This document shows, in pieces, positions 6,653-23,959 of a stretch of 64,000 nt of DNA (its first letter is position 1; each line of letters begins with the position of its first letter). A model generated the notes under the pieces. The model saw only the letters and a list, made by a program, of their open reading frames with translations. It made no database searches and was not told the DNA's origin. This DNA comes from a virus: positions 32,001 through 96,000 of the IMG/VR virus record IMGVR_UViG_3300042484_001840. The stretch is one strand, 5' to 3'. Both the position numbers and the translations under genes were made by a program.

Positions 6653-7276
6653 GTGTCGTTTGATTTTTCAAAAGTTAACGGTGTCCAAGTAAAATTAGCA
6701 GTATCTCCTGATGCTATTCCTCAAGAACGCATCACTGGGGATATTCTTAAAGGACGCGGACCCCGACGAGGAAACCTAGAACGCTTACTTCGTTATTGGC
6801 GACCCATTATGCGCAAGCCTGGTGGATTTCGCCGTTGTAAAGTCATTTTGGCAGACCATCCCGAATTATTCCCATTGAATAACATTTGCGCTTGGCTTCA
6901 TCATGAGACTACTGGCTTATGGCCAAACGAGGGATGCCATCACCCTGGTATGAAAAATTGCCGTAAGAAAATTCAAGGTGTCGTTAGAGGTTCAGTTATT
7001 AGCGATAATGAATTTGCTCAGCGTCTTTCACGGCTTCGTGGCGATGGAAAGTCTCTTGACTCCATGGATGGTTACGATTCTGAAGTTGTAACTGAATCAG
7101 ACTTTAATCACGCAAAAACTGTCCTTGATGATTTTATTGAAATGGAAAATAAATTCATTATTTTTATTAATGATGATAATAATTGGCTTCACGAAGGTCA
7201 AGACGAAGATGGAAATTGGTCTCCGCATGATTGGATGAAGCCAGAAGGTCACGAAAAAGACTGCGGATGCGGGTGA
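6653..7276 (+). CDS. Hypothetical head-module protein with Cys/His motif
   Basis: LLRYW...PGGFRRC...ICAWLHHETTGLWP; AGGAG RBS before the GTG start. Confidence 0.6.
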   Translation: MSFDFSKVNGVQVKLAVSPDAIPQERITGDILKGRGPRRGNLERLLRYWRPIMRKPGGFRRCKVILADHPELFPLNNICAWLHHETTGLWPNEGCHHPGMKNCRKKIQGVVRGSVISDNEFAQRLSRLRGDGKSLDSMDGYDSEVVTESDFNHAKTVLDDFIEMENKFIIFINDDNNWLHEGQDEDGNWSPHDWMKPEGHEKDCGCG

Positions 7277-7281
7277 TTTAA

Positions 7282-9219
7282 TTGGAAGATAGTGACCGCA
7301 GGGAAAACCATCCTGACTGGGTTCAGGCACGGGTTAAATCATTTATTCAGGATACAAAAGTCGGCACTGTTCGTTCTGGTTCTGGCGTAGGGCAAGCACT
7401 ACAAGGCGCAGTTTCATATGTAACTCCTGGTGATGTTAGTGGTGTAACTAGCCCTGTTCGCTCTCGTCTTTACTCCGCCATTACTCCTGGTGGTCGTGGC
7501 TTGCGCCCTCGTGTCAATAGACCAAATGAGCGCGGATATCGTTGCCCTGAGGGATATCAGTTTGGTGGTCGCTTTACTGACTCCAAGTGGTCCACATGTG
7601 GACGACAGTTATTTGATATCCCATCACTATCACGAACTTTGCTTCAAATTGCCGATAACGCTATTCGTGTAGGGCGTGGTATTGGTTATCAAAATCCTGA
7701 CACAAACCCTCTTGGTGGTGCCGAAGTTACTGGCGGTTCATTGATTCAGAGCCGTATGGCAAATATTCCTCGTGTTAGTGCTTTTGACAAAAAGAAGCGT
7801 GATGATGGCTTAAAGGCGGCAATTGACGAGTTAGTCAATCCATTGGCTCCAGCGTCAATGATGATTCGGCGCGATGGTTTCCCAATGCAACCAGTCGTTT
7901 CTGCTGGAGAATTACGGAAAGTTCCAGACAATCGCAATATGGAAGGCGCAGTCTTTCTATTGTCTGCATCCAATATTGATTCTTTTGGTGGCGATGAATT
8001 GGGTTTATTGTCAAATACTGGCGTGAGCACTTTGATTTATGTTCTACCTAATGGTTCTACTGTTCGTATGGACAAAACCCGTGCGTTAACCGTAGGCGAA
8101 CGGCGCAAGTTGGGCAAGACTGTCAGTTCGGCATCCAAGATTGACAATAGTAATGATCCATTGGCTCGTCTAAAAATGGTCATTTCAGACTCTGGTGGCG
8201 GAATTTCTATCAACAAAGATTTTTCTAAAATTCGCAATGCTGAAGAAGTTGTTGATTCAGGCAAATTTAAAGGAAAGCCTCGCTGGGTTGCTGAAGCGTT
8301 TCGCAATAGTGGCAAAAAGCGTACTGTTTCTCCCCAGTCAATTGTTGATGATTCCAAGTTGGATTCCGAAACAGAAACTCAAGCAAGTAAAAATATTAAT
8401 GATATTGAAACTGCTATTGAACATATAAACAACGGTGGAAATCTTTCTGATATTAATCCCGCTATTTTGCCTCAGGCTATTCGTCGTGCAAAAGTTTATC
8501 GTCAAAAGAATATTGGATCTGGTCGTATTCTTTTTGAGCGTGCTGACGGCGGTGTTTCTTTTATAGAGGTTTCCAATGGAAAGCGCCTTGAGCATCTTGG
8601 TGCCCATTTTTCTGCCGCTATCGCTGAACATCTTGAATTACCTACTCCTAAAGTCCGCATCATGGGCGAAGGAGACAATCGCCCGTACCTCGTTCAAAAC
8701 ATTGATACTGTCGTGCCAAATGGCAAATTACAATCTATGAAGTTGACAGATATGCCCGCAAAAGACCTTGCTGGTATTTTTGTTTCTGATTACTTGACAG
8801 ATGTTCGCAAACGAAATCCTTCTACTGTTTCGGCTGTTTCTGCTGATGGTAAAGTTCGCGCAATTGCAACGATGAATACCCCCTCGTCGTTGGCTGGTTT
8901 ATCTGCTGAAGAAATGATCAAGCGTCGCTCCATTGTTATTGGCGATTGGGTAAAAGCAGATGGGAATAACATGATTAATGCCATCAAAAACCGCAATGAA
9001 GAAGTTCGTCGTCAAATTCTGGCTGTTTATGAAGATTTAATTCAACGAGCACGCGCTTTTAAATGGGATAGATACATTAAGCAACTACGGTTAGACGGTA
9101 AACTTTCTAGTGCAGAACAAAAGCATATGGATATTGTTAAATCTCTATATGACCAAAGACTAGACAATTTAGCCAAGTCTAAGGAATCTTTTGCTAATAT
9201 TTTGGAGTTAGGCAAATGA
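7282..9219 (+). CDS. RCPxG-motif protein with C-terminal degenerate HipA/PI3-PI4K-like (pseudo)kinase
   Basis: RCPEGYQFGGRFTDSKWSTCG near the N-terminus. The C-terminal AAIAEHLELPTP...IFVSDYLTDVRKRNPSTV...AIATMN aligns with the DRHxxN and ID(N/F)G loops of the neighbouring kinases but lacks both Asp residues. Confidence 0.6.
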   Translation: MEDSDRRENHPDWVQARVKSFIQDTKVGTVRSGSGVGQALQGAVSYVTPGDVSGVTSPVRSRLYSAITPGGRGLRPRVNRPNERGYRCPEGYQFGGRFTDSKWSTCGRQLFDIPSLSRTLLQIADNAIRVGRGIGYQNPDTNPLGGAEVTGGSLIQSRMANIPRVSAFDKKKRDDGLKAAIDELVNPLAPASMMIRRDGFPMQPVVSAGELRKVPDNRNMEGAVFLLSASNIDSFGGDELGLLSNTGVSTLIYVLPNGSTVRMDKTRALTVGERRKLGKTVSSASKIDNSNDPLARLKMVISDSGGGISINKDFSKIRNAEEVVDSGKFKGKPRWVAEAFRNSGKKRTVSPQSIVDDSKLDSETETQASKNINDIETAIEHINNGGNLSDINPAILPQAIRRAKVYRQKNIGSGRILFERADGGVSFIEVSNGKRLEHLGAHFSAAIAEHLELPTPKVRIMGEGDNRPYLVQNIDTVVPNGKLQSMKLTDMPAKDLAGIFVSDYLTDVRKRNPSTVSAVSADGKVRAIATMNTPSSLAGLSAEEMIKRRSIVIGDWVKADGNNMINAIKNRNEEVRRQILAVYEDLIQRARAFKWDRYIKQLRLDGKLSSAEQKHMDIVKSLYDQRLDNLAKSKESFANILELGK

Positions 9220-12200
9220 GTAAAATAGTTCTTATTAAAGACGCAATCAAGGATGAGCCATACGCTCTTGTGTCTTACGACTTCATGGAAGTTAAGGCAT
9301 TTGCGTTAACGGACGATGCCGAAGAGTGGTCTGAGTGGGCTAATCAGTCATGTAAAACAATTGACGAGATTCGTGAAAGTCTTACCTATTCACTTCAGAC
9401 AGAACTTCCACGACCAGCAACTGAAATTGAATTAGATGGAATTAAGCAATTCACCACATCTGAGCGTTTTATTCAAATTAAGTCTGCAATTAGTGAATCA
9501 AAACTTGAAATGGTTGGCACATTCAGTCGTCAGAGTCGTCGCTTTGCCGTAAAGACATTGAAAGATTCGGAACTTCCAGAAAGTCCATCTTCATTGCCTT
9601 TGACTTCTTTTAGTGCTCAAAGTCGGCAGGCAATCATTGAGTATAAGGCCTTGTCTTACAGGGCTGACAATAAGTTCTCGGCTACAGCCTTTGAAGCAAA
9701 GGGTGCGCGAGCATTATGGGACCCCTCCCTTGGACCATCTGGCGGATGGCGATGCCCTACTGGTTCTCAGTTCGGTGGATACATCACTGACCGCTTTGGT
9801 CGTGGATGCGGTGGAGGGGTTCTCCGTCGTGTTGGGCGAGCATTAGTTGATGCAGGTCGTGGAATTGACAAATTGGGCGAGGCACGAGGCGCTCGTCGTC
9901 TTGGTCGTGCCGCTGACAAACTCAATAATAAGCCTGGTGGCGGACGCGCTCAGCGTGCCGTTGGTAATGCGGCTAATGCCCTTGAGCGTGGCGCACAGCG
10001 TTTGGTGGGAGACTTTAAGCCTGGTGATGGGCGTGCTCGTCGTCGTGGTATTTCAGCACCAGATATTGCTCCTGAGCGTAAAAAGGAAATTGATGACCGC
10101 TTGATGGCTATTCAGGCAGAACTTGATGATCTGGTTGATCAGCCTCCGACTGGCGATATTGAGAAGCGTATTACAGAACTTACCAATGAAAATAAGAAGT
10201 TGCGTCGCGAGCGAGATGGAGCAATGCCAAAGCGCATTTCTGCCGTTAAGCCTGCTCCATCAAAGCGTCGTGTTGTTAAGCCTGAGGCTGGACGCAACGA
10301 GCGAGTTCAAGGTGCACGCCCTGTAAAGAAGCCAGTTACGCAAGGTCGTCGTCAGGGCGTTCTAGATCGTGCCGCTCAACGACTCGTTGGAGAATATGAC
10401 CCATCAGAGTATAAGCCTGGTGACAAAAAGCGTATCAAAGATCGCGAAAATCGCTACGCAAAAGTTTCTGATGAAGCATTGATTAATGCGCTAAAGATGA
10501 ACTCGCCCAAGGCTGTTAAGCCGGGTCAGAATCGTGACATTGAGGCAAACAAGCGTCAAGAGCGACTTGAAGTTCTTCAGGAAATGCTCAATCGTGGCAT
10601 TGATGTCCCAGAACAATTCAAGAAGGAAGTCAAGCAGTATCGCTTAAAGCCCCAGCGTAAGAAGCGTGGCGCTAAGGCTGGTAGTCGTCGTAGTCGTGCC
10701 GCCAACGCCCTAGAGCGAGCCGCTCAGCGAGTTCTTGCAGGGGACAAGAATAAGAAGCGTCGTGACCGTAGTCGTCGCAAGCGTGCCGCCGATGCTCTTG
10801 AGCGTGGTGCAAAACGGATTCTTGATGGTAAGAAAAAGCCTAAAAAACAAGATAATCGCAAAAAGCCACAACCAAACGGTGGTCTTAACCTACCTGGCGG
10901 TGGTCGTGGGATTATTGAACCGCGAGATACTGAAGGTCTACCAAAACCAGGTATGGGGGGCATGCGAAAGCCTGGTGAAGGTCAACTCAGTCTTGAAGAA
11001 CTTCAAGATTTAATAGATAGTAATGCAGGAATTACTGGTCTTTCTGAATTACGCAAACAGTTTAAAGATTATGACGATGCCCAGATTGACGATTTTTTAA
11101 GTCGTTTTGTTAAAGCACGCGAAAAAATAGATAATGATGATCCAGAAAGATTAAAACTTGACAAGTGGATCATCAATCTTGAAATGGAAAAAACCGCTCG
11201 TGAACTTGATCGCCTAAAGAAGGGCAAGAAAGAACGAGATAATCAGCGTGCCCGTGCTCGTCGTGCCGTTACCGCTCAAAGCGCATTTACCCCCATTCGT
11301 CGTCCACGCCCAAAGAAAATGAAGGGCGACAAGATTGCTTGGGACGATATGGATGCCCAGCAAAAAGCACGCATGCGTAATCGTGCTATTGCCGAACTTG
11401 ATGATCTTGATGCAAGTTGGCGCAAGCGTCTTGGTTTAAAGAGCAATGAACCACTCACTGACAAGATGATTCGTGACTACATTAAAGAACGAGAGAACAA
11501 CAAGCCTGGTGCTTACATTGGCGTTCTTAAGGCTAACGCTAACGACTGGGGCGTTCTTAAGGATTACGCAAATGACCTTGAGAATGGGGATATTCTAAAT
11601 AATCTTGGTCCGAAGCGTCGCAAGACACTTGTTGACGACTTGAATAATGCTTCTGCACCTAAGCGTGTTAAGACACCAAGTTCACCCCGACCCAAGTCTG
11701 CCCCAAGTGCAAAAAAGCGTGATGGTCTAAACGATAATGAAAAGAACCGTCTCAAAGAACTTGACGGACCTGAGTTTGACAACCAAGTAGAAGCATTTGA
11801 CGAAGCAGAGCGTCTGGCTAAAGCAAATAATGAATCTATGGTTGCGTTTGAACAAGATGGAAAATTCCGTGTTGTCAAGGCTCAAGACTTTAACGATCTA
11901 CTAGATGGCATTGATGATGACAGTCGTATGCAAAATGCGATTGGTAGTGTTCGCCATTTTGATGCTAATGGTAACGAAAGCAAAATTGATGTTTCCGAGT
12001 CTGCTCGCGTTAAGCAATCAATTAAAGAATCACTTGGCATTGATGCTCCAGAATCGCTTGGTGGCTCAATACCCGATGATCGGTCACGACGAAATGTGCG
12101 TAATCGGTTCCCGAATAATGGACTCCCCGATAAGGCATTCTGGCGAGACAAGGACTGGAAGCCTCGTACTGGTGGAGATGATGCAGAAAAGCATGAGCGT

Positions 12201-15200
12201 AGGTTTGGTCGCTACTTTGATTCCGATGGCAATATTAATGCTCGTGGTCGCTTTGTTAACGCTCAGTTAGAACAAGAGCGAGCAGAAAAGGCAAAGCCTA
12301 GGTTTAGTAAGACACCAGAATCTGTAATTCCAGAATCTAGTCGTAGAAAAACATCTACTTTTAATTTTGGTAAAGTTGAAGTTTTTGGCGAGGATAATAA
12401 CGGAAGAGTTCTTTGGAAAGACAAAGATGGCTTTGTTATTCCTGACAACATCGTAAATGATGAAGCCGTACGACAACGCTACATGCGTTATGCAAAAGAG
12501 GGGCGAGATGCCTATCTAAATGGAACATTTGCGCAAAATCTTGGCAAAAAGATTGATGATCTTTTAGTCAATAACGACCCCGATAAGCGTCGTGATTTAA
12601 GAACTAATCTCCAAAATCTCATTGAAGATCGTCGTTTTTTAATTGCACGAGATAACCCCGTTGCGGAACGAGGCAAATGGGCTGGGGAATTAGTCGCATT
12701 CCAAAACATGCTTAACGAGTTGGATGCTCATCCAAACGCAGTAGACATTTCCCCAATGAAAAATGAAGGACTTGATTCCTTGCCCAAGGCTTCTATTAAG
12801 CGTCGCGATTTATCCCTTATCAAATTGCCTGAATTTAAAGAAGCAAAAGAAGTATTCGTTCAATATTATGACCTTCGTAATGACAGGTTCAAAGCACATC
12901 TTGAAAACGACAGGCTTGATGATGCAAATATCATGATTGAAGGACTTGCTAACGAAATTGATGGGCATAATAAGATGTTGGCTGACCCTGCAATGCCCGA
13001 AGAAGACAGAATTAAGATTTTAGCGCGCCGTTCAGCCGCTCTTGAAAAAGTAGGTAAGTTTAACCAAGATTTGCAACTTCGTATGGATGAAATCAATAAA
13101 CGAATTGGCGCAGAGAACGCTGCACGATTAGGAATTCCAAGACTAAGCGAAGGCAACATCCCAGATAGTGTTGACGCACGGCGGAGAGCAATCATTGGAA
13201 ACAATTATGAAATAAGGCTTTTGGACAATATCAACCTTGAAAGAGCAAAGGAACGCGCTGCGGAACTTGCAAAAGAAAAAAATGATGGCGAAGGCATCTA
13301 TGTTACACAGGATAAAAAGAGTGGCAAATTCTTCTTACTAACTCGGGCTAATTTTGAAGAAGCAGTTAAAAACGATGCTTTTTCTGAAAATTATGTCGTT
13401 GATGCTGTCGTCTATGCCGCAAAGACCCCAGCGCCACCAAAGCCTCCTAGCGTTGCAAGAATTCCTGATCTAAATGATCCGTTTGATGGATTTAAATTGT
13501 GGAACATGCCAATGAGTTTTGATGCGGACGATAAAGGTAATGCAATCAACGCAGCAAAAAGATATGCTGTTGAATTTGATAGCGATTTTGTAGTAGCACA
13601 ACGCATAAGTGATGGAAAGAAATTTGTTCTTGATGCTCGTGACTGGAATGACTTTGTAAACTCTCCAAAAGTAAATAGTGATGATTTCACTGGCGTGGCA
13701 ATTTTTGGCGGATATGGAAGAGATACCGACGGAATGCCTCGGCTAAACGCTGGCAAAAAACAACTTATTAATGAAATGCAAAGTAGAGATTTAGGTCGCG
13801 TTTTCCCTAAGGGTAATCGCATTTTTGGTAGTGGTGATAAGAAAGCAAAAGAACGCGCTCAAAAGTTTGCCAAAGAACAAGCAGATGCCGATGGTCGGAA
13901 TCGTTATGTTATTGACACTGGCAAAGAATATATGGTTGTCAATGAAAAAGAATATAAAGAACTGCTAGCAGAATTCAATAACAAGGAACAACGCCTAAAT
14001 GCAACGCTATCTCCAGAGAAGTTCATTAGAGAACGAAAAGGGAATAATGGAGTAGGTAGGGGCGCTCTTTCTGGTCCAAGGGAAATGGATATTGATTCCG
14101 ACGAATATAAAGACGCTGTTGTAGCAGTACATCAACAGAAGGGGTCAATTCAAGATATTCCAGACCCACTATTTGCTGCTGTTGTATTTGACGAAAACAT
14201 TACGGACGGTAAGGGCAATTCATTAGAAATGCCAGATGGAAGTGGCGTTGTTCAATTTGAGGACATTTTTTCTGGACGCTTTCAGCCAGATGAAAATTTT
14301 AGATTTGAAAATTTAAGATTTAAGTTTACGCAGAAAAAGCCAAATAATTACAGAGACCCAGACTATGGCGGGGTCTGGGCTGTTTATAAAGTTGAAGACA
14401 AGCAAACTGGCGAAACTTGGTGGATTAAATCTTCGGCATATGGAGTTCATGACGCACTACTTGAAGACATTGGCATGGAAGGTGCTGGTATCTTTAATTT
14501 TGCCGCTGCAAATAACGCAAAGAACATAAGAATTAGTGGTGAAATTCCGCTTGAGCAAAATGGTAGAAAAGTCAGATGGACTGCCATGCGTGATATTGAT
14601 GCATGGGAAGCCCCAGAGGGTCAAGAGCAACTCAGTTGGGTAGATGCCAATAATGGTGGCATTGACGGCAATAATGTCAGTCTAGAAGATATGGCTAATA
14701 TTTTTGTTATGGATTTTGTCTTGGATAATCAAGATAGGCATGGCGGAAACTTCAAAATTGCAACTGATAATAATGGTGTTCAGCGTCTAGGCATTATTGA
14801 TAATGGTTTAATGTTTGGTGGTCGCGGATATGACATTATTGGTATGAGCCGTGATAACCCATTATCAAAAGCAGACATTAATCAAATTGCTGCAGAACGA
14901 GAAGCGTTAGACATGAAGGGATATGCAGAGGGTGATGGAAATATTTTAATAAGAGGATACAGTCTTCCTTCTTCATTCAAGAATCGCCTAGCGTCAAGTC
15001 AATTTGCTAGAGATGAATTCAATCTTCAGGTTAAATACTCAATTGAAACAATGCGAGAAAATATTGACAGAATTCTTGATGAGCAAAGAATTAAAGGAAA
15101 AGGTATTAAACTTTCAGAAACAGAACTAGCACATCTAAAAGCAATGAAATTAGTTGCTGATGCTCGCTTGAAATATCTTGAAGCAAACCCAACTGCTGTG

Positions 15201-15341
15201 ACTGACTATTTGTTGAAAGACCTACAAGTTAATCAGTCTTCTTCAACTCCCAGTCCAATAAATGCCCCAATGTCTCCAATTCGTCGCCCAAGGGGATTAA
15301 CTGGTCGTCAGGTTGGCTCGCCTTTTGCTGGAGGATTGTAA
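9216..15341 (+). CDS. 2041-aa putative virion cargo protein with C-terminal HipA/CtkA/PI3-PI4K-like kinase
   Basis: KGARALWDPSLGPSGGWRCPTGSQFGGYITDRFGRGCG motif, Arg/Lys-rich ALERxAQRLVG repeats and four internal alpha/beta repeats. Kinase motifs: WWIKSS, ALLEDIG, DFVLDNQDRHGGN (about 14733), IIDNG. Confidence 0.8.
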   Translation: MSKIVLIKDAIKDEPYALVSYDFMEVKAFALTDDAEEWSEWANQSCKTIDEIRESLTYSLQTELPRPATEIELDGIKQFTTSERFIQIKSAISESKLEMVGTFSRQSRRFAVKTLKDSELPESPSSLPLTSFSAQSRQAIIEYKALSYRADNKFSATAFEAKGARALWDPSLGPSGGWRCPTGSQFGGYITDRFGRGCGGGVLRRVGRALVDAGRGIDKLGEARGARRLGRAADKLNNKPGGGRAQRAVGNAANALERGAQRLVGDFKPGDGRARRRGISAPDIAPERKKEIDDRLMAIQAELDDLVDQPPTGDIEKRITELTNENKKLRRERDGAMPKRISAVKPAPSKRRVVKPEAGRNERVQGARPVKKPVTQGRRQGVLDRAAQRLVGEYDPSEYKPGDKKRIKDRENRYAKVSDEALINALKMNSPKAVKPGQNRDIEANKRQERLEVLQEMLNRGIDVPEQFKKEVKQYRLKPQRKKRGAKAGSRRSRAANALERAAQRVLAGDKNKKRRDRSRRKRAADALERGAKRILDGKKKPKKQDNRKKPQPNGGLNLPGGGRGIIEPRDTEGLPKPGMGGMRKPGEGQLSLEELQDLIDSNAGITGLSELRKQFKDYDDAQIDDFLSRFVKAREKIDNDDPERLKLDKWIINLEMEKTARELDRLKKGKKERDNQRARARRAVTAQSAFTPIRRPRPKKMKGDKIAWDDMDAQQKARMRNRAIAELDDLDASWRKRLGLKSNEPLTDKMIRDYIKERENNKPGAYIGVLKANANDWGVLKDYANDLENGDILNNLGPKRRKTLVDDLNNASAPKRVKTPSSPRPKSAPSAKKRDGLNDNEKNRLKELDGPEFDNQVEAFDEAERLAKANNESMVAFEQDGKFRVVKAQDFNDLLDGIDDDSRMQNAIGSVRHFDANGNESKIDVSESARVKQSIKESLGIDAPESLGGSIPDDRSRRNVRNRFPNNGLPDKAFWRDKDWKPRTGGDDAEKHERRFGRYFDSDGNINARGRFVNAQLEQERAEKAKPRFSKTPESVIPESSRRKTSTFNFGKVEVFGEDNNGRVLWKDKDGFVIPDNIVNDEAVRQRYMRYAKEGRDAYLNGTFAQNLGKKIDDLLVNNDPDKRRDLRTNLQNLIEDRRFLIARDNPVAERGKWAGELVAFQNMLNELDAHPNAVDISPMKNEGLDSLPKASIKRRDLSLIKLPEFKEAKEVFVQYYDLRNDRFKAHLENDRLDDANIMIEGLANEIDGHNKMLADPAMPEEDRIKILARRSAALEKVGKFNQDLQLRMDEINKRIGAENAARLGIPRLSEGNIPDSVDARRRAIIGNNYEIRLLDNINLERAKERAAELAKEKNDGEGIYVTQDKKSGKFFLLTRANFEEAVKNDAFSENYVVDAVVYAAKTPAPPKPPSVARIPDLNDPFDGFKLWNMPMSFDADDKGNAINAAKRYAVEFDSDFVVAQRISDGKKFVLDARDWNDFVNSPKVNSDDFTGVAIFGGYGRDTDGMPRLNAGKKQLINEMQSRDLGRVFPKGNRIFGSGDKKAKERAQKFAKEQADADGRNRYVIDTGKEYMVVNEKEYKELLAEFNNKEQRLNATLSPEKFIRERKGNNGVGRGALSGPREMDIDSDEYKDAVVAVHQQKGSIQDIPDPLFAAVVFDENITDGKGNSLEMPDGSGVVQFEDIFSGRFQPDENFRFENLRFKFTQKKPNNYRDPDYGGVWAVYKVEDKQTGETWWIKSSAYGVHDALLEDIGMEGAGIFNFAAANNAKNIRISGEIPLEQNGRKVRWTAMRDIDAWEAPEGQEQLSWVDANNGGIDGNNVSLEDMANIFVMDFVLDNQDRHGGNFKIATDNNGVQRLGIIDNGLMFGGRGYDIIGMSRDNPLSKADINQIAAEREALDMKGYAEGDGNILIRGYSLPSSFKNRLASSQFARDEFNLQVKYSIETMRENIDRILDEQRIKGKGIKLSETELAHLKAMKLVADARLKYLEANPTAVTDYLLKDLQVNQSSSTPSPINAPMSPIRRPRGLTGRQVGSPFAGGL

Positions 15342-15342
15342 A

Positions 15343-15690
15343 ATGGAACAAGATATTGAAAGAACAGAAAAATCTTTAAAGGATTTAAAGAAAGAAATCA
15401 CATATCCTGCTGTTATTTATGTTGAGACAGAACAGGGAAATATTGCTCCAATTTTAGTTCTTGAACGAAAAGGTAGAATTACTTCTTATTTTTGGGGCGA
15501 TGTTAAACGCTATGATTCAAATGAGTATAATGTTGTTGGTGATACTGTAAGACTATCTATAGGTTCGCAGTCGTCAGCAAAACTATTTTTTATTGATAAT
15601 GCCACTCCTGTGGACATTGACAGACTTATAGATCAGGCTAAGAAAAATAAGATAGTCAAACCAGAACCTAAAGGCAAAACATCAAAATGA
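15343..15690 (+). CDS. Small protein immediately downstream of kinase gene (candidate immunity/partner)
   Basis: ATG 1 nt after the kinase stop with GGAGG upstream; overlaps the start of the next gene. Confidence 0.6.
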   Translation: MEQDIERTEKSLKDLKKEITYPAVIYVETEQGNIAPILVLERKGRITSYFWGDVKRYDSNEYNVVGDTVRLSIGSQSSAKLFFIDNATPVDIDRLIDQAKKNKIVKPEPKGKTSK

Positions 15691-18600
15691 CTACCGATTG
15701 CGAAACTTGTCGTCCGCTTGTAAAAGTCATGAACCCCCAAATGTCTACGGACCGTAGGCGGTTTATGATTGAGAGCAAGGCTGCCGAATATCGCAAACAC
15801 ATGGGTCAGCCAAGCGGTTTATTGCAAAAGGGTGCTCGGGCAATATTTGACCCTAAACTTGGTCCGTCTGGTGGATATCGCTGTCCTGAGGGGAGTCAGT
15901 TTGGTGGTTACATTACCGACCGCTTTGGCAGAGGCTGTGGTGGGGGTATTATTCGCCGTGTCGGGCGAGCCTTTGGAAAACTAGGTCGTGGATTAGATAA
16001 CATTGCAGACAGGCGTGACCGTAGTCGTTTGGGTCGTGCCGTCAATCGCCGTAGTAAGCCTAATCGCGTTGCTCGTGCCGCTGGTGCGCTAGAGCGTGGA
16101 GCACAAAGACTTGTTGGCGAATACAAGCCCGGTGACTACAAACCAGGTGACGGTGGTCGTCGTAATAGGCGCAACCTACCTGGTGGACCCTCTTTGCGTC
16201 GTTCTGCTGTTCCACGCAAACCTAAGCGTGAACGCAAACTGCCCAAAGACGGGGACAAGAAGCCTCGCACCCAAGGGGCAACTCCCAAAAAGCGCCCCAT
16301 TATTGAGCGCGCTGCTGAAGGGCTAGAACGCGCTGCTCAGCGTGTTTTGGATGAAGATCGCAAGAAAAGAACACAAGGCGCTAAGCCTGCCAAGCCGAAG
16401 AAGCCTGTTGCTCCCAAGGTTCCTTCACTGAAGCCAAATGTTTCAGAAGATAAAAAACGAAACATCACCGACATTAATGATATTGACTGGGATAATTTAA
16501 CTCCCGAACAGCGTGACGAAATTCAAGGGATTCGTTGGGATGCCATTAGTGACCTTGAAGACAAAATGTCTAAGTATATTGGCGTTCCAAAAGAGCGCAT
16601 GGACCCTGTTCTATTTTTAGACAGAAATGAACGAAACAGAAATAATAAAAAATACCAAGCAGATGTGCTTAAGTGGAGACAATTACACAACAACTTTCAA
16701 GATATGCCAGCAGAAGCAATTAAAGAAATTGACTGGACCGATGGAGAACGCAAGAAGATTCTTGATGTTGTTAATGGGGATGTAAAGCCCGATCTTGCAA
16801 AAGACGGTGGAGAATTTGACTGGGATAATTTAACTCCAGAACAGCGTGGCAAAATCAAGGACATTGCAAACAATGCGCTAGAAGACGACAAAAAAGCACT
16901 TCTGAAACATTTTGGTGCTGCGAGTTGGAATAATGACAGAGTTAATCGTGCTATAGATTTAGCAGACAAAGGATTCATAAAGAAGGATAAAGCCAACGAA
17001 ATAGAAAAAATTGCATTGAGATGGAATCTGTTGCAAACCCAGTGGAATGACGAACCTAATCTTGCTATTAACGACATTAATTGGACAGACGACCAGCGTC
17101 AACAAATCCGTGATGCAATTGGCATAGAGGCTCCTAAGAAGCCCAAGACCCGTGGTGCTGACTTCTGGGAACGACGCAAGAATAACAAGCCGATCAAGCC
17201 TGAAGAATTAGATGTTGAGGATGCTCCAGAGATTTTCTCAAGCAAGCCAGACGGCACATCTGAAAGTAATCGTCTTGTCAAGGCTTGGGAACAAGCATAT
17301 GGAGACGAAATAGATAAATACTTTGCTGAGAAAAATGTAGATCGCCTTGAAAAATTAAAAAATTCAATAGATTTTATTCTCAATAAAAAAGAAATGAATC
17401 TATCTCCTGCTATGCGTCGGATGCTTCAAGAAAAAATTAATGACATAGACAAGAAGGTTGCTGCTCTCCGTGTGCGAAAAGCACGAGGTGCACGCACTGC
17501 CACACCAAAGCCAAAACTTCCCAGTCTTGTAGGTAAGCCAGTAAGCCGTCAATCAAAAATTACTCGTATTAAAGATAATGTCATTGATGCTTTGCGCATT
17601 AAAAACAGGCGTGAGAATGCTATGGGCGACTTTGCTCCAGACGCAATTGGTGATGGCGTACTTGCTTTCCCTGAAAACATTGTTAACGATGACATTAAAA
17701 ATGTGGCAGATGCAGTCAAGTGGCTTGATGACGGAAAATCATTATACGAAATTCCACAACATTATTGGCTAGAGGCAGTGACTGAGCATGTAGATAATGC
17801 AAGAAATCCACAATACAATAAAATTCCAATTAATAACCCTGGTGTTATTAAAAAGATTTTCATGTTTGAAAAATTAGACAAAGATGGAAAAGGCACTGGA
17901 ACTGGTGTCGTTTTTGCTCGTGCTCCAGGTAATGCAAGAGACGGCATGGGCGAGGTTATGGGTCAACAAGTCCTTAATGCTCTTGGTATGAATGTTGCTC
18001 CTGCGCGATTTGACGGAATTGTAAGAGACCCCGGCGGTGAAACTCCTGTTGCCGTAATGCCATTTGCTTGGAATAGGGCAGCACAAGGAGACATGCAACG
18101 ACCAGTAGCGATGAATTTTGACCGAAAGTTGTTTGATCAATTTGAAGATAAAGGATTCCCTGTACGACTAGGAAATTTATTAGGCAACTATTTCATGGGT
18201 GTTGGGGATAGGCACACAAATAACGCAATGATGGCAATTGTTGATGGTCAGCCTCATATTGTTCCTATTGACTTGGGCTGGAATGGTAACAGAAAAGATT
18301 TTTACCTTTATGCAAAGGGTGGATTTCAAGGTTTCTCAATGGACCCTGACTTATATGACAATATTGCAAATCACTTAGCCACACTTGATCCCGCAGAAGC
18401 AAAAAAACAACGCGATAAACTTGTTGAAGTTTTTGATGGAATGGTCTTGCGTGGTGATGCAATTGTTGCCCAAGGTAAAGATAAATTCATTAAAGATGCT
18501 GTAGCAATGATGCATCTTGGTGCTGATCCAGTTAAGAACGAGTCTTTTGTAGTAGAAATTGACAGAAAAGAACTTGAATCTACGATGGAGAAAAAAGCAT

Positions 18601-19937
18601 CGGATATATTTGATGCTTTAGAAGCAAATGTTGCGCAGGCGAAAAATGAAAGAGCGCGTTTATTTGATGCATGGGGAATGGAAGATGTTCCTTCATTGGG
18701 AGTACTTGAAGTAGTCCGCCCCACTAAGCCAAAGACACCAAAGGTATCTACACCCAAGGTATCCACACCTAAGGCACCTACCTCAAATGCATCCAAACCA
18801 AAAAGTGCTCTAGAAAGAATTATTGCACCACTTCGTATCAGTAATCCACAGAAAAGAAACCCACGAGTACCAATCTTGGCGGAAGTAAAATCTGGTGAAT
18901 TAATTGCTCGTCCAAAAATGATAGAAAATCCAAAAATTAAAAACCGCCAAAATGCCAAAGACTGGCTTGACAATGGTGGGCTAATTGAGGAAGTTCCGCA
19001 AAGATTTTGGGCACAAGCACTTTCTGACCATGTAAATGGTAACGCGGCAGTGAAACAGTATAAAGAAATTGACCCATCTGATGAAGTAGGTCAAGGTGCA
19101 GTTAAGACTACAAGAATTTACTTGGCACTTGATGAAAATGGTAAACCAACTGCCCAAGGGTTCCTCATTCAACGCGAAGGTGGAGTAGATAAACTCGGTG
19201 GGGCATTAGACAGAAATAATGTGGCAGAGTTGGTTGTAGCAAACATGCTCAATGCCTTTGGACTTAACTACGAACCAGCAAGACTAGATGGTCAACTTGA
19301 CGAAGATGGAAAAGAAGATTTAAATAAAGTTCCTGCTGTTGTTATTCCATTTGCATGGAATGGCGGACCAAACTATGTGAATGTTCAAAAGCCAAGTGGG
19401 TGGAATGCCGCCAACTTTGACAGGGATATTTTTGATGGTCTTGCTGATAAGGCATACCCACAGCGACTAGCAGCCTTTTTGGGAAATCTTGCTTTTGCCA
19501 TTCCTGATAGGCATGACCAAAATCAAATGGGTCAAATTATTGATGGTGTTCCTATGGTCGTTCCAATTGACTTTGGTTGGGCAGGCAAATACGGTCCAAT
19601 GGATTTCTATGATTATTTAGATGGCGAATTTGAAGAACTTGAACCTGACTTTTTTATGGACATGCAAAATCATTTGAATGGTTTAGACAAACAAACAAAA
19701 ATTGAACAAACACAAGCAATCAAACAAGTTTGGGACAATATTGAATCAAAACTAGAAGAAACATTTAATCGCGGGAAAGATCAATTTATTAACGATTTCC
19801 TTGATTTCTTAACACCAGAACAACGAGCAAACACAAGAGTGGTTGATCAGGCAACATATAAACTTAAGCAAATGTATGAACTTTTAGAAACACAATACAA
19901 TGAAATTCAAATTAATCGTCCTGAATTTCTTAAGTAA
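15687..19937 (+). CDS. 1416-aa putative virion cargo protein with two tandem HipA/PI3-PI4K-like kinase domains
   Basis: KGARAIFDPKLGPSGGYRCPEGSQFGGYITDRFGRGCG motif and WDNLTPEQR repeats. Kinase 1: GNYFMGVGDRHTNN...VPIDLG (about 18207). Kinase 2: GNLAFAIPDRHDQN...VPIDFG (about 19506). Confidence 0.8.
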   Translation: MTTDCETCRPLVKVMNPQMSTDRRRFMIESKAAEYRKHMGQPSGLLQKGARAIFDPKLGPSGGYRCPEGSQFGGYITDRFGRGCGGGIIRRVGRAFGKLGRGLDNIADRRDRSRLGRAVNRRSKPNRVARAAGALERGAQRLVGEYKPGDYKPGDGGRRNRRNLPGGPSLRRSAVPRKPKRERKLPKDGDKKPRTQGATPKKRPIIERAAEGLERAAQRVLDEDRKKRTQGAKPAKPKKPVAPKVPSLKPNVSEDKKRNITDINDIDWDNLTPEQRDEIQGIRWDAISDLEDKMSKYIGVPKERMDPVLFLDRNERNRNNKKYQADVLKWRQLHNNFQDMPAEAIKEIDWTDGERKKILDVVNGDVKPDLAKDGGEFDWDNLTPEQRGKIKDIANNALEDDKKALLKHFGAASWNNDRVNRAIDLADKGFIKKDKANEIEKIALRWNLLQTQWNDEPNLAINDINWTDDQRQQIRDAIGIEAPKKPKTRGADFWERRKNNKPIKPEELDVEDAPEIFSSKPDGTSESNRLVKAWEQAYGDEIDKYFAEKNVDRLEKLKNSIDFILNKKEMNLSPAMRRMLQEKINDIDKKVAALRVRKARGARTATPKPKLPSLVGKPVSRQSKITRIKDNVIDALRIKNRRENAMGDFAPDAIGDGVLAFPENIVNDDIKNVADAVKWLDDGKSLYEIPQHYWLEAVTEHVDNARNPQYNKIPINNPGVIKKIFMFEKLDKDGKGTGTGVVFARAPGNARDGMGEVMGQQVLNALGMNVAPARFDGIVRDPGGETPVAVMPFAWNRAAQGDMQRPVAMNFDRKLFDQFEDKGFPVRLGNLLGNYFMGVGDRHTNNAMMAIVDGQPHIVPIDLGWNGNRKDFYLYAKGGFQGFSMDPDLYDNIANHLATLDPAEAKKQRDKLVEVFDGMVLRGDAIVAQGKDKFIKDAVAMMHLGADPVKNESFVVEIDRKELESTMEKKASDIFDALEANVAQAKNERARLFDAWGMEDVPSLGVLEVVRPTKPKTPKVSTPKVSTPKAPTSNASKPKSALERIIAPLRISNPQKRNPRVPILAEVKSGELIARPKMIENPKIKNRQNAKDWLDNGGLIEEVPQRFWAQALSDHVNGNAAVKQYKEIDPSDEVGQGAVKTTRIYLALDENGKPTAQGFLIQREGGVDKLGGALDRNNVAELVVANMLNAFGLNYEPARLDGQLDEDGKEDLNKVPAVVIPFAWNGGPNYVNVQKPSGWNAANFDRDIFDGLADKAYPQRLAAFLGNLAFAIPDRHDQNQMGQIIDGVPMVVPIDFGWAGKYGPMDFYDYLDGEFEELEPDFFMDMQNHLNGLDKQTKIEQTQAIKQVWDNIESKLEETFNRGKDQFINDFLDFLTPEQRANTRVVDQATYKLKQMYELLETQYNEIQINRPEFLK

Positions 19938-19954
19938 GGTAACAAGGAACTGAC

Positions 19955-20380
19955 ATGGCTCAATATTTAATAGTTTACTCAGCAATTAATCCTGACTATA
20001 AACGAGGCGCTCCGTCTGGTTCTATTAAGTTTGACGGAGTTTCTGCAACAATTGTTGGACCTGATAGATTTGTAAAAGATTGGTCAAAGAAATTATCTAT
20101 TTCCTCGGTCTTGGCTTCAAGCATTAATGACAACAAAGTGGATATTTCAAGTTTTGTTTCAACAAACACCTATGTTGACATGATCTTTTTTGATGACGAT
20201 AGCGCATCTAAGAGTGATGATGGAAAATTAAAAAAGTTATACGATTCCATTTCTGGAAGTAAAAGAAAAATCACCCTTGAACGACTTCCAACTTTTGATG
20301 ATCCAGACTTTACAATTGAAAAACGAAATGCTTTTTTCAAAAAGGCACGCAAAATCAAAGAACAAAGTAGAAAAAAATAA
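19955..20380 (+). CDS. Small partner protein 1 (candidate immunity), paralog of next gene
   Basis: MAQYLI...SIKFDGV...W...SSVLASSINDNKVDI aligns with 20380-20709; AAGGA RBS. Confidence 0.65.
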   Translation: MAQYLIVYSAINPDYKRGAPSGSIKFDGVSATIVGPDRFVKDWSKKLSISSVLASSINDNKVDISSFVSTNTYVDMIFFDDDSASKSDDGKLKKLYDSISGSKRKITLERLPTFDDPDFTIEKRNAFFKKARKIKEQSRKK

Positions 20381-20709
20381 TGGCTGAATATCTTATTTAT
20401 CATGGCGATTTTGGCTCCAGTATTGACGACCCCGGTCTGATGTCAATTAAGGCTGATGGGGTCAAATTAACTATTCGGACCTCTCGTGACATGATGGAAG
20501 AGTGGAAAGATCGCATTGAAAATTCTATGGTTTTGCAGGGTTCAATAAAAGATGGACAAGTAGACCTTGAAAGATATATTTTTGCTAATAAGTATTCCAC
20601 ATGGACATTCTTTACTCAAGAAGAATTTGATGACTATAAAAAAGTGTACAATTCTGTAAAGGGTTCATCAGTAGTTGTGACTATTAAGCCAGAGAAAAAG
20701 AGCAACTAA
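20380..20709 (+). CDS. Small partner protein 2 (candidate immunity), paralog of previous gene
   Basis: MAEYLI...SIKADGV...W...NSMVLQGSIKDGQVDL; translationally coupled. Confidence 0.65.
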   Translation: MAEYLIYHGDFGSSIDDPGLMSIKADGVKLTIRTSRDMMEEWKDRIENSMVLQGSIKDGQVDLERYIFANKYSTWTFFTQEEFDDYKKVYNSVKGSSVVVTIKPEKKSN

Positions 20710-20710
20710 A

Positions 20711-23700
20711 ATGGCAAAGATGCGCGCGTCATCCAAAGAAGATGCAATGAAGATTGCACGCTATGTTGGCTGTTCTGGCGCACACCAAGATAAGAAGGGG
20801 AATTGGATACCTTGTGCCAATCCCGAAGATCTGGTGGAGATCCTAGATAAATCTGCAAGAAACTCTACTGAAAAGTTAACCAAGAAAAAGCGTCGTCGGT
20901 TTGTTAATGGTCAATGGGAAAGACTCGGAGAACGAGGTCCTATCAGTATTGACACAATTGACGGCGGTGGACTTGTGTCTGGTATGGGCAAGTCATTAAC
21001 TGAATGGTTCAAAGAGGAATGGGTTGATATTTCAAGACCCAAAAAGGGTGGCGGGTTTGAGGCGTGCGGACGAGATGACGCAGACAAGGGCAAATACCCT
21101 AAATGCGTACCAGCGTCACGAGCAAGCAATATGTCAGAGGAAGAAATTCGTTCTGCGGTTTCACGAAAAAGAAGAGCAGAATCTACACAAAGTAGAGATG
21201 GCAAAAAACCGATTTATGTTCCTACTGATAAAAAGAACGACCCATTTGTTTTGAACGAAAAATCAGCAATACCCACAAATCCAGAACTTTATGCACGGGT
21301 TAAGGCTGAAGCAAAAAAGAAGTTTGATGTTTATCCTTCTGCTTACGCAAACGCTTGGTTAGTAAGGGAATACAAAAAACGGGGTGGCGGATATCGTTCT
21401 GAAAAAGCAGACGATGGCGATTATGAAGACTTTGTTGAAGACCTCACAGAAATGCAACTATCCGATTTTATTGATTGGGTAGATCAAAAAGAAAAAGCAG
21501 AAAAGGTCTGCCCGCCAGCAACATCAGATATTGGCTTAAATATCAAGAATCGTCAGAATGCTATCAACACGGCTGGTTATGGTCCCCTAAACCCTAAAGA
21601 ACCCAATGTGGACTTTTGGGAAAAGAAGGCAAAACGCTGGTCTGTAACGATTGAAGAATCCAAGAAACAAAAGTGCGGAAACTGTGCTGTCTTTATTAAG
21701 ACTCCTCGGATTCTTGAATGCATTGAGTCGGGTCTTGGTAATGAGGCTGGAGACACTGCTTGGGATGCAATCAATGCTGGTGACCTTGGATACTGCGAGG
21801 CATTTGACTTCAAGTGTGCTTCTGCCCGTACCTGTGATGCATGGGTCGGTGGAGGTCCAGTAACTGTTGAAAAGGGTAAGCAAGAGGAAAAGGCTGATAC
21901 TTCCACGATTATTATTGGTCGTGCTAAGCCTCGCATTGGTGACCCCGATGTCTACACCGACCCCAACTCTGCTCGTCTGCGTTCTCGTAAACTTGGTTGC
22001 ATTGGTATCGCTCGTAGAGAAACGCCAGATGGAGAAGTTGTCTGGACACCCTGCACAAATATCTCAGATCAACGCAGATACCAAGGCGAAACACCCTTAG
22101 GTCAGCGAGATGAGGCTCGGCGTTTTGCTGACAGACTTGCTGAAGTTGGCGGTCCTGATCGTAAGCGCCGACGCATGCGTAAGTACAAGAGCCTTGAATA
22201 CACGACAGATATAAAGGCTTTTCGGACTTTGGGTTCAAGTATGGGCGGTCGCGGGATCAGTGGTAGTTGTCGTGAATTTACTGGAGTTGATGGCGATGGT
22301 GATGGATTCGTATGTAATCCCGCCTCTCGCGAGGACGACCTACCCCTTGCGGACACCCGAAAAATTTTTAAGCGTGGCGGTAAAATGCTGTCAAGACAAG
22401 AATTGGTAGAGCAAGATGAAACAATTCTTAATATGTTTGGCAAAGGTGAATCTTTATCAAAAATCGGTAAAGAAGTAGATCTTGACCCAAAAGAAGTTGA
22501 TTTTTTAATCAATGGTTTCCGCAAAAATAATCCAAAATCTGCATTCACATTATTCAATAATCGCAATATCAATATTCAAAAAAAGCGTGAAGAGCGCAGG
22601 AAATTAGTACTTGAGAATGTTAGAAAAGCCACAGATGCCAACCGCAAGTTAAATGCAAGAGGCGAAGACCCTACGCCAGAATCTGATGATGATCTTGATT
22701 TTACCCTTGATCCAGATAAGGTTCCTCAATATCTTAAAAAGAATTTTGCTAAATATATGCAACGCTTAAAAGACCCTGAATTTGCTGATGAAATAAAAAA
22801 AATTGCTGATGATTTGCGTGCTGGTCTTGGTTTGGCTGGAACGGCAAAAAAATACAAACGAGACTCAGCATTTATAGAAATTGTTCGTAGAAATGAAAAA
22901 ATTACAAAAACAAAAAAACTACAAAAAAACATTAGAGAATCAGAAGTTCCTGATTTTAATAATGATACTGATGACCCCGATTTTACTCTTGACCCAGAAA
23001 AAATTCCTCAATTTTTAAAAAGGGGTTTTGCTGGTAATGTTAGGCTAGCAAGAAGTCCTGAGTTTGCGGAAGAAAGAAAGAAAATTGCTGATGACTTGCT
23101 CCTTGGTCTTGGAATTAATGCCGTAAGATTAAAATATAATCGCGATACTTCATTGGTAGATGTAGTTCGCAGGCTTGAAAAAATTCCAAAATCAAAAGAA
23201 CTCAAAAAAGTTGATCCTAAAATTAGACAGGATGTTGTTGACCTTGTAGATAAATTGATTAAAGATGATAATCCATTCATGTCGGTTGCCGAAATCGCAA
23301 AAGAATTTAAAATTACTGGAATGGATGCGCGTCGGATTATTAATGCTGCAAAATTGGAAAAATATTTTGATTTGCACAATAAATATACAGACGCAAAAAG
23401 AAAAAAACTTTTTGCTGAAGTTGCTGAACTTCATAAACTTGATCTTACATATGAAGAAATAGGCAAACGCTTAGGAATTAGTGGTGATGCAGTAAATCAT
23501 ATTGTAAAAAAAATGAAACTACCCCTAAGACGACCTGGCGGGGGAGGTGGTCTTCCTGGAGTAATAAAAAGAGGTGGCGTAATGATTCCTCGTTCATTGG
23601 CAATGAAACAAAACAAGGAAATGCTTGACTTGTATCAGCGTGGCTATTCTCTTACAGATATTGCTAAAGAAATGGGAATCGGTGTTGCTACCGTTAGGGA

Positions 23701-23959
23701 AATTATTAAAAAATTTGCAGACAATGACAAAGTTCGTATTCGTGGAAATAATGTTACTGAAAAAGAAAATCAAATAAGAAAACTTTTGAAAGAAGGTTTG
23801 CACCCTCGTGAAATTATGCGAGACATTATAGGTAATGTTACATATAGTAGAATTTTAGAAATTGCAAAAGAAGAAGATATTAAAATTCCTCCTATGCGTA
23901 AATTTAAATCCGACAATCAAAACTTCAATTCATTTGAGAACAATGATTATTTTTACTAA
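20711..23959 (+). CDS. 1082-aa modular protein: string of small Cys-containing phage domains plus about 7 tandem HTH-like repeats
   Basis: Two GCxG...WxPC modules, a WFKEEWVD module, a YPSAYANAWLVREYKKRGG module, a CPPATSD...CGNC...YCEAFDFKC module and DGDGDG, then HTH-like segments (LTYEEIGKRLGIS, YSLTDIAKEMGIG, MSVAEIAKEFKIT). Confidence 0.65.
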   Translation: MAKMRASSKEDAMKIARYVGCSGAHQDKKGNWIPCANPEDLVEILDKSARNSTEKLTKKKRRRFVNGQWERLGERGPISIDTIDGGGLVSGMGKSLTEWFKEEWVDISRPKKGGGFEACGRDDADKGKYPKCVPASRASNMSEEEIRSAVSRKRRAESTQSRDGKKPIYVPTDKKNDPFVLNEKSAIPTNPELYARVKAEAKKKFDVYPSAYANAWLVREYKKRGGGYRSEKADDGDYEDFVEDLTEMQLSDFIDWVDQKEKAEKVCPPATSDIGLNIKNRQNAINTAGYGPLNPKEPNVDFWEKKAKRWSVTIEESKKQKCGNCAVFIKTPRILECIESGLGNEAGDTAWDAINAGDLGYCEAFDFKCASARTCDAWVGGGPVTVEKGKQEEKADTSTIIIGRAKPRIGDPDVYTDPNSARLRSRKLGCIGIARRETPDGEVVWTPCTNISDQRRYQGETPLGQRDEARRFADRLAEVGGPDRKRRRMRKYKSLEYTTDIKAFRTLGSSMGGRGISGSCREFTGVDGDGDGFVCNPASREDDLPLADTRKIFKRGGKMLSRQELVEQDETILNMFGKGESLSKIGKEVDLDPKEVDFLINGFRKNNPKSAFTLFNNRNINIQKKREERRKLVLENVRKATDANRKLNARGEDPTPESDDDLDFTLDPDKVPQYLKKNFAKYMQRLKDPEFADEIKKIADDLRAGLGLAGTAKKYKRDSAFIEIVRRNEKITKTKKLQKNIRESEVPDFNNDTDDPDFTLDPEKIPQFLKRGFAGNVRLARSPEFAEERKKIADDLLLGLGINAVRLKYNRDTSLVDVVRRLEKIPKSKELKKVDPKIRQDVVDLVDKLIKDDNPFMSVAEIAKEFKITGMDARRIINAAKLEKYFDLHNKYTDAKRKKLFAEVAELHKLDLTYEEIGKRLGISGDAVNHIVKKMKLPLRRPGGGGGLPGVIKRGGVMIPRSLAMKQNKEMLDLYQRGYSLTDIAKEMGIGVATVREIIKKFADNDKVRIRGNNVTEKENQIRKLLKEGLHPREIMRDIIGNVTYSRILEIAKEEDIKIPPMRKFKSDNQNFNSFENNDYFY

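Follow-up and report, generated by a model that had tools for sequence, protein, structure and literature searches.

Head-module proteins of an uncultured phage that combine a shared N-terminal motif with atypical kinase domains, candidates for packaged effectors

The 64,000-nucleotide stretch analysed here (the window) covers bases 32001-96000 of IMG/VR virus record IMGVR_UViG_3300042484_001840, a 145,042 bp record that is estimated to be about 98% complete. Among its head genes are those for three large proteins of 645, 2041 and 1416 residues, p645, p2041 and p1416, each of which has a cysteine-containing motif (the RCP motif) in its N-terminal region and one or two kinase-like modules towards its C-terminal end. 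In the explanation favoured here, the RCP proteins are kinase cargo that is packaged in the head, is ejected with the DNA and acts on the host, with small cognate partner proteins encoded beside the kinases; for this mechanism in full, a probability of about 0.5 seems appropriate. Incorporation into the head and delivery are supported by the late position of the genes in the head module, the N-terminus that is shared with a core gene, the basic regions, and a paralog elsewhere in the genome that lacks the RCP module. Packaging, injection, the partner role and the substrates are inferred, and for head loading, injection and DNA binding by the basic repeats the inference is drawn from gene position and composition. 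The genes concerned are as follows (window coordinates).

7282-9219, + strand: p645, with RCP motif and C-terminal pseudokinase module
9216-15341, + strand: p2041, with RCP motif, basic region and kinase module
15313-15690, + strand: s125, putative small partner gene, 3' of p2041
15687-19937, + strand: p1416, with RCP motif, kinase-a and kinase-b
18751-20371, + strand: swapped cassette (linker, kinase-b and s141 gene), from DNA comparison with the relative L017
19955-20380, + strand: s141, putative small partner gene that co-varies with kinase-b
20380-20709, + strand: s109, a paralog of s141; kinase-a is its presumed partner

The RCP module

The motif RCPxGxQFGGxxTD...CG is common to all three proteins, as an earlier note on this DNA had proposed, and its positions at about 7540 (to 7581), 9750 and 15879 are confirmed; it lies at residue 87 of p645, residue 179 of p2041 and residue 65 of p1416. 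When all six frames of the complete 145 kb genome are scanned, the motif is confined to these three open reading frames (ORFs). A profile built from the three N-terminal regions and searched against 1.84 billion cluster representatives finds 273 of them at E<=1e-3 (192 when the limit is E<=1e-10), far more than chance would give; the counts take in some close relatives. The proteins of this family range from 189 to 3439 residues, the profile match is near the N-terminus in every case, and the core consensus is G(W/Y/F)RCPxGxx(F/Y)GGxITDRFGRxCG. The RCP region has no match in Pfam, PHROGs or PDB sequences and gives only noise with NCBIfam, and a Pfam scan assigns the N-terminal parts of p645, p2041 and p1416 to no family. 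A CxxC at the extreme N-terminus of p1416 (residues 5-8, window 15699-15710) is kept in P0012, a relative of 40% identity, and with the two cysteines of the RCP motif would bring the total to four; p645 has no N-terminal CxxC and p2041 has one upstream cysteine only.

The location of the family was the check that the earlier note had asked for, and it is consistent. Among 78 IMG/VR loci, a set selected by patterns biased towards p645-like sequences, the capsid gene lies downstream on the same strand in all 34 in which a capsid gene is in range. A homolog of p207, the protein encoded upstream of p645, is present in 75 of the 78; in each of these 75 an RCP ORF starts within 700 nt downstream of the p207 gene, and the protein directly 3' of that gene is p645-like in 75 of the 78 loci. 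In five distant contigs the RCP proteins and small ORFs are flanked by the portal or S78 protease on the upstream side and by a DUF3721 protein or the capsid gene on the downstream side; in all, five of six such contigs have the RCP genes upstream of the capsid gene on the same strand; in the sixth (P0142), a DUF3721 protein downstream is the sole visible neighbour from the head module. The number of RCP proteins varies: in the 31 loci that have both the p207 and capsid genes there is one in 25, two in 5 and three in 1. Since most loci have a single, p645-like RCP protein, the window phage stands at the expanded end of the family, and the p645-type protein is a core gene of a wider phage group.

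The C-terminal regions are less varied than had been predicted. Widely diverse enzymatic domains were expected from a profile search; instead, of 151 representatives, about 90 (about 60%) end in domains of the kinase superfamily, 42 (about 28%) have a second, unnamed domain, and 1 has RNase_T. The second domain (P0058-like; examples at L006:10001-13527, L009:10001-14996 and L008:9662-14307) has no Pfam or PHROG match and no Atlas match at or above 0.9. Small ORFs located 3' of the non-kinase RCP proteins form a third small-ORF family; in the four loci examined, the small ORF that follows a second-domain protein (L006_90, L009_107, L008_91, L015_89) is of a family other than those beside the kinases. 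The RNase_T domain, which is DnaQ-like exonuclease in type, occupies residues 341-508 of P0046 (2389 residues; L014:10001-17170).

The kinase modules

Four kinase modules had been recognised in the three proteins, each preceded by a similar helical pre-domain, and the pre-domain strings are indeed located at residue 378 of p645, residue 1634 of p2041 and residues 676 and 1090 of p1416. The catalytic-loop motif DRHxxN is found once in p2041 and twice in p1416, in each case followed by ID(N/L/F)G. The two larger proteins are arranged as follows.

p2041, residues 1-135: N-terminal extension, conserved in 73 relatives
p2041, residue 179 (nt ~9750): RCP motif
p2041, nt 9981, 10362, 10710 and 10797: four ALER-type motifs, in the basic region
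p2041, between the basic region and the kinase module: variable middle
p2041, residues ~1632-1995 (nt ~14109-15200): kinase module, with DRHGGN at residue 1840 and a classical beta3 lysine
p1416, residue 65 (nt ~15879): RCP motif
p1416, nt 16089 and 16323: two ALER-type motifs
p1416, middle: repeat-bearing region
p1416, residues ~666-947: kinase-a, with DRHTNN at residue 841 (nt ~18207)
p1416, residues ~1081-1416: kinase-b, with DRHDQN at residue 1274 (nt ~19506)

Kinase-a and kinase-b of p1416 are clear paralogs (36% identity, E 5e-56), and the modules of p645 and p2041 have a weak likeness to each other (E 6e-4). The two pairs are joined solely through a hidden Markov model (HMM) that was iterated on relatives and that then matches all four modules.

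The prediction that these modules fold as atypical kinases of the HipA/CtkA/PI3-PI4K class is borne out by the structural model of kinase-b, and CotH is now to be added to that class. The AlphaFold2 (AF2) model, made with 32 aligned relatives, has a predicted local distance difference test score (pLDDT) of 86.8 and a predicted template modelling score (pTM) of 0.87. In an exhaustive VIA-align run, the top match is CotH (Z 13.1, root-mean-square deviation 4.7 Å, 264 residues), followed by PI4KIIalpha (Z 12.9, 4.4 Å, 246 residues), CtkA (Z 11.4, 4.2 Å, 207 residues), HipA (Z 10.9, 4.2 Å, 217 residues) and MavQ (Z 10.8, 4.4 Å, 225 residues), with Fam20 and actin-fragmin kinase next in the ranking; HipT is also matched (Z 9.9, 5.1 Å, 241 residues). 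Foldseek against the PDB finds chains of PI3K p110 (E 8e-5, probability 1.0) and HipT as well. The nearest predicted viral structures are proteins of uncultured phages, one of them annotated as a PI3/4-kinase, and further viral neighbours are large proteins from tailed viruses of haloarchaea and from a mycobacteriophage.

At the level of sequence families the modules stand apart. The Pfam family PI3_PI4_kinase (PF00454) scores 20.0 bits with p2041 and 22.5 bits with p1416, below its cut-off of 27.1 and over the catalytic-loop stretch only, and a Pfam scan with the HipA_C and HipA_2 profiles gives no match in the window proteins. Among the 32 relatives, three match PI3_PI4_kinase at E<=0.01 and one matches HipA_2 weakly (E 3.5e-4). 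The modules appear to be a separate branch of the protein-kinase-like superfamily, outside the PI3_PI4_kinase family and probably outside the HipA family.

Between the RCP module and the kinases, p2041 and p1416 are strongly basic, with a summed net charge of about +51 over residues 201-550 of p2041 and +37 over residues 51-250 of p1416; histone-like HC2 Pfam matches occur in relatives. The Arg-rich repeats of the ALERGAQRLV type that had been noticed here are present in four copies in p2041 and two in p1416. The ALER-type motif occurs nowhere else in the genome, and the capsid protein and the other head proteins are without it. The middle regions have repeats of their own. In p2041, residues ~860-1600 (window ~11800-14000) contain by eye four copies of a unit of about 60 residues, an A/K/E-rich helix followed by a YVV..GKF.VL..DF strand pair, of which a simple regular expression found two. 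In p1416, residues ~265-480 (window 16480-17100) contain repeated DWDNLTPEQR and INWTDxxR units; relatives differ in this region by an indel, with the similarity to L017 breaking at 16790-17064 and the L017 ortholog about 116 residues shorter. The N-terminal extension of p2041 was considered as a possible fused partner, for which hhalign gives a probability of 6%.

Active sites

In one alignment (A3), the D, R and N of DRHxxN and the second D are invariant and the H is nearly so. The helix-C Glu, the Asp, His and Asn of the catalytic loop and the Mg-binding Asp (E/D/H/N/D) are all kept in 100 of 116 family domains. The ATP-binding lysine has two alternative positions, which are mutually exclusive: it is in beta3 only in 80 of the 116 domains, in the glycine-rich loop only in 34, in both in 1 and in neither in 1. 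Both modules of p1416 are of the glycine-loop type (GVIKK..VVFAR in kinase-a and GAVKT..FLIQR in kinase-b), and p2041 is classical. This relocation, which to judge from the aligned sequences is compensated, resembles that in WNK kinases. Because the catalytic set is kept and the relocation of the lysine is compensated, the alignment argues for selection on catalysis in the family kinases.

The module of p645 (residues ~370-645, nt ~8390-9216), of which residues 370-600 are matched by the iterated kinase HMM, has A/K/N/T/M in place of E/D/H/N/D and is the one domain of 116 with neither lysine. It had been described as a degenerate copy, a description that does not fit a conserved core member: all 58 p645-like orthologues aligned from the 78 loci have SD(Y/F/W)LxDxRxR in place of DRHxxN, and most have Asn at the position of the Mg-binding Asp. 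On this pattern, p645 is either a pseudokinase that has been conserved or an enzyme whose chemistry is different, and not a recent wreck.

Partner genes and the exchanged cassette

The small genes s141 and s109, which follow p1416, are paralogs (32% identity, E 2e-13). Two relatives, L016 and L017, are close to the window phage in the proteins around them, with the capsid protein 98.6%, p645 97% and s109 92% identical, and over the first ~250 residues p1416 and its L016 ortholog are 100% identical. In these relatives s141 is 35-36% identical to its counterpart in the window, and from residue ~1000 of p1416 onwards the identity is 22-44% in most windows of 50 residues, with one at 64% and the last at 10%. 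The DNA of L017 is 90% identical up to 16790, 78% identical over 17064-18750 and 93% identical from 20372 on, and over 18751-20371 no nucleotide similarity is detectable. The breakpoints at 18751 and 20371 are sharp, and the right one lies about 9 nt before the junction of s141 and s109 at 20380. The alternative allele of kinase-b and s141 is found in several independent assemblies. Kinase-b and s141 are thus a replaceable unit, exchanged jointly among phages that elsewhere have 90-98% identity; the earlier note had spoken of polymorphic-toxin grammar, and the case is stronger than was claimed. Since s109 stays 92% identical where kinase-b and s141 are swapped, it is presumed to be the partner of kinase-a.

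The s125 gene probably starts at the ATG at 15343, which gives a protein of 115 residues; in L016 and L017 the gene behind the p2041 ortholog encodes an s125 ortholog of 113-115 residues. A fifth kinase, of 679 residues (G000:107237-109276, - strand), is located outside the window and the head module, between the WhiB genes at ~102 kb and ~114 kb. It is related to the kinase of p2041 (E 7e-83), has neither the RCP module nor the basic N-terminal region, and is followed directly by a 110-residue paralog of s125 (G000:106905-107237, - strand; 37% identity, E 7.5e-24). From this pair it follows that the RCP module tracks location in the head module, while the partner tracks the type of kinase. 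By hhalign the s125 and s141 families have no relation to each other (probability 0.3%), and each type of kinase appears, from these gene pairs, to have a small cognate partner gene of its own. One copy of the ~60-residue unit of p2041 lies 5' of the kinase in the fifth kinase protein, and the two proteins share the C-terminal residues GGL.

For the AF2 model of s141 (pLDDT 86.4), Foldseek gives no PDB match at E<=0.001 and VIA none at Z>=3, and an Atlas feature search gives nothing usable. A second-look alignment finds 16 chains at Z>=2. Among them are a HipA N-domain (7czo; Z 2.6, 3.6 Å, 64 residues) and two HipS chains (8ezr_A; Z 2.3, 3.5 Å, 59 residues; and 7ab3_E; Z 2.2, 3.6 Å, 61 residues), all below significance and all aligned over their full length. 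Two Couple_hipA clusters are among the nearest Atlas shapes, with template modelling (TM) scores of 0.35-0.40, also below significance. The likeness of the partner to HipS and the HipA N-domain may be taken as a consistent lead that is statistically weak. The idea of a HipS-like partner fits a kinase core that, as in HipT, is without the HipA-type N-subdomain. A predicted complex of kinase-b with s141 scores 0.00, below the mark, a value that bears neither for nor against binding.

The head module and the host

The region is the head-morphogenesis module of a phage of about 145 kb, encoded on the + strand, and its other genes are the following.

933-3203, + strand: portal with C-terminal MuF domain (Phage_Mu_F at residues 667-752, just over the Pfam cut-off)
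3297-4982, + strand: S78 (HK97-type) prohead protease
4997-6622, + strand: 541-residue protein
6653-7276, + strand: p207, Cys/His-rich protein of 207 residues with a C-terminal CGCG
20711-23959, + strand: 1082-residue DUF3721/DUF5872 protein with helix-turn-helix (HTH) repeats
24122-25420, + strand: HK97-fold major capsid protein

The three RCP proteins had been placed between the protease and capsid genes. That location stands, but the order is now portal with MuF, S78 protease, the 541-residue protein, the 207-residue protein and then the three, and on the downstream side the small ORFs and the HTH-rich 1082-residue protein separate them from the capsid gene. They had also been called independent of MuF. 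The effectors themselves do lack a MuF domain, but MuF is present in the head module, fused to the portal, and the same portal-MuF fusion is present in the relative L015. The 1082-residue protein begins with DUF3721 and DUF5872 and has several HTH units in its rear part; in relatives, the corresponding proteins measure between 173 and about 1490 residues, the longest of them running off its contig. The p207 protein, which has no family assignment, contains a GGFRRC string that is loosely reminiscent of the GGYRCP motif.

The genome has three WhiB-like genes, one in the window (37597-37782, + strand) and two outside it (G000:101851-102054 and G000:114118-114318, both - strand), and WhiB has been used as a marker by which actinophages are recognised (PMC10914622). 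The major capsid protein is 50% identical to the capsid proteins of Brevibacterium phage Cantare and of Gordonia Bendigovirus phages. Because of the three WhiB genes and a capsid protein closest to those of actinophages, the host of this uncultured phage is probably an actinobacterium, and because the GC content is near 45%, probably a low-GC one, and presumably aquatic. Matches to the family among 185,579 species genomes amount to one only, on a 6.3 kb contig in a metagenome-assembled genome of Bacteroidia; our guess is that this is a mis-binned phage contig.

Function and alternatives

The three co-oriented late genes encode proteins that follow one plan, with an N-terminus defined by the RCP motif and its two cysteines, a variable middle, and one or two kinase-like domains at the C-terminal end; p2041 and p1416 also have a strongly basic stretch behind the RCP module. 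In the favoured mechanism, the RCP module would tie the proteins to the head, either as a tag for incorporation or through association with DNA. The kinases would then be cargo, ejected together with the DNA to phosphorylate targets in the host as infection begins, while the small partner may restrain or escort its cognate kinase in the producing cell. p645 would be the ancestral, catalytically dead core member, and p2041 and p1416 lineage-specific additions that reuse its N-terminal module. Kinase and partner would evolve as a replaceable cassette, and the exchange of cassettes suggests that the phages are in an arms race against the targets or defences of the host.

Several points weigh against packaged cargo. 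Gene position is the only support for the presence of p645, p2041 and p1416 in the virion. A tblastn search of cultured phages with p1416 and the p2041 kinase module as queries found nothing, and because no cultured phage has a sequence homolog, virion proteomics cannot be borrowed. Proteins of 1416-2041 residues would need to be ejected unfolded. The ALER motif, considered as a general signal for cleavage or loading, was rejected, since of 151 relatives no more than 27 have it. As a pseudokinase, the core member p645 might have a purely structural role; the fifth kinase-partner pair shows that these kinases can work without packaging; and CotH, whose fold is closest, serves as an assembly kinase and not as an effector.

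In another explanation, the kinases might serve assembly or the late stage in the producing cell, where, expressed with the head genes, they would have head, scaffold or host proteins as their substrates during morphogenesis, much as CotH acts on the spore coat, and would not be delivered to the next host at all. CotH as the top structural match, the location of the genes within the morphogenesis operon and the status of the p645-like member as a core gene all agree with such a role, which is nevertheless unlikely, as it does not explain why kinase-b and its partner are swapped for a 34-36% identical allele between near-identical phages, nor the growth from one to three RCP proteins. The modules might also be HipT/HipS-like toxin-antidote pairs that act in intracellular conflicts, for example with co-infecting phages or host defence, with an incidental location in the head module and some other role for the N-terminus. 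The exchange of kinase-b with s141 is what a toxin and its immunity protein would show, the fold matches include HipA and HipT, the HipA N-domain, HipS and Couple_hipA clusters are among the weak nearest matches of the partner, and a kinase-partner pair does exist outside the head module. The likeness of the partner to HipS is, however, below any level of significance, the partner gene comes after the kinase and not before it as in hipBST, and the strict link of the RCP N-terminus to the head module in 34 loci would be unexplained, so that this possibility is more doubtful still.

Least probable is a mainly structural role, in which the proteins would be internal head or DNA-condensing proteins with kinase folds as mere scaffolds and with catalysis irrelevant. 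It agrees with the loss of catalytic residues in p645 and all its aligned orthologs, which are conserved all the same, and with the very basic N-terminal regions and the histone-like matches in relatives. The other domains speak against it, since 100 of the 116 keep the five catalytic positions and the relocation of the lysine is compensated, a pattern that is expected under selection for catalysis. A further proposal, which we put forward tentatively, is that a split HipT/HipS-like kinase has been turned into capsid cargo. The partner would silence the kinase and stay behind at packaging, so that the kinase would be active only after injection; cassettes would be exchanged between phages to match host targets or defences, and about a third of the kinases use the relocated, WNK-like lysine.

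If packaged cargo is the right explanation and the kinases are delivered with the DNA, they would be a phosphorylation-based device for host takeover in phages of abundant, largely uncultured actinobacteria, bacteria that depend heavily on Ser/Thr kinase signalling. Three groups that are unnamed in family libraries are defined here, an N-terminal head-module domain with 273 protein clusters, a large atypical kinase superfamily that lies between the PI3/4K and HipA types, and the small cognate partners of these kinases. The mutually exclusive positions of the lysine are a natural experiment in the plasticity of the kinase active site, and the co-swapped cassette provides a ready pair for work on toxicity and rescue.

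Comparison with known systems

Iyer et al. 2017 (PMC5512222) predicted that phages package multidomain effector (polyvalent) proteins, among them kinases of a different family. The kinases predicted there are of a truncated Ser/Thr/Tyr type and belong to phages of Verrucomicrobia and Bacteroidetes (PMC5512222). Like the polyvalent proteins and the MuF toxins, the RCP proteins are large multidomain proteins whose genes adjoin those of the portal and head, have packaging and injection as their predicted fate, and possess variable C-terminal enzymatic domains with cassette-like variation. In place of MuF, the proteins described here have the unnamed RCP domain with its two cysteines at the N-terminus. 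Their kinases, in contrast to those of the polyvalent proteins, keep the full C-lobe and a helical tail, and their hosts are probably actinobacteria.

The HipA and HipT-HipS systems have a similar protein-kinase-like core (Z 9.9-10.9), a catalytic loop of the DxHxxN type and an adjacent partner gene for about 100-140 residues, and, as in HipT, the kinase module is without the HipA N-subdomain. In HipBST, however, the arrangement differs: here the partner gene is downstream, its product has Z values of only 2.2-2.6 with HipS, and the kinases are parts of long head-module fusion proteins. PI4KIIalpha and the PI3K-PI4K group, CotH and CtkA have the same succession of DRHxxN and IDxG and are the best fold matches (Z 11.4-13.1), although the window kinases fall below the PI3K-PI4K cut-off in Pfam and have none of the accessory domains of the lipid kinases. 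As in WNK kinases, whose homology to these modules is limited to the kinase superfamily, both p1416 modules, and 34 of the 116 domains altogether, lack the lysine of beta3 and have one in the glycine-rich loop instead, a comparison made on sequence positions.

The proposed mechanism is similar to that of the internal proteins (IPs) and Alt of T4 and the internal or ejection proteins of phiKZ/SPN3US-like giant phages, in which basic proteins encoded among the head genes have an N-terminal loading signal and are ejected with the DNA. The T4 and phiKZ/SPN3US-like systems use a gp21-type protease and short targeting sequences that are cleaved. In the window the protease is of the S78 (HK97) type, there is no sequence relation between the proteins and cleavage sites are not known. 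Searches of the literature turned up no description of a system of this kind. The concept of phage-packaged multidomain proteins with kinases is already known; the features that set the present proteins apart are the RCP module in place of MuF, kinases that resemble PI3/4K, HipA and CotH, tandem kinases in one protein, the cognate partners and the co-swap of kinase and partner, the relocated lysine and the probable actinobacterial host.

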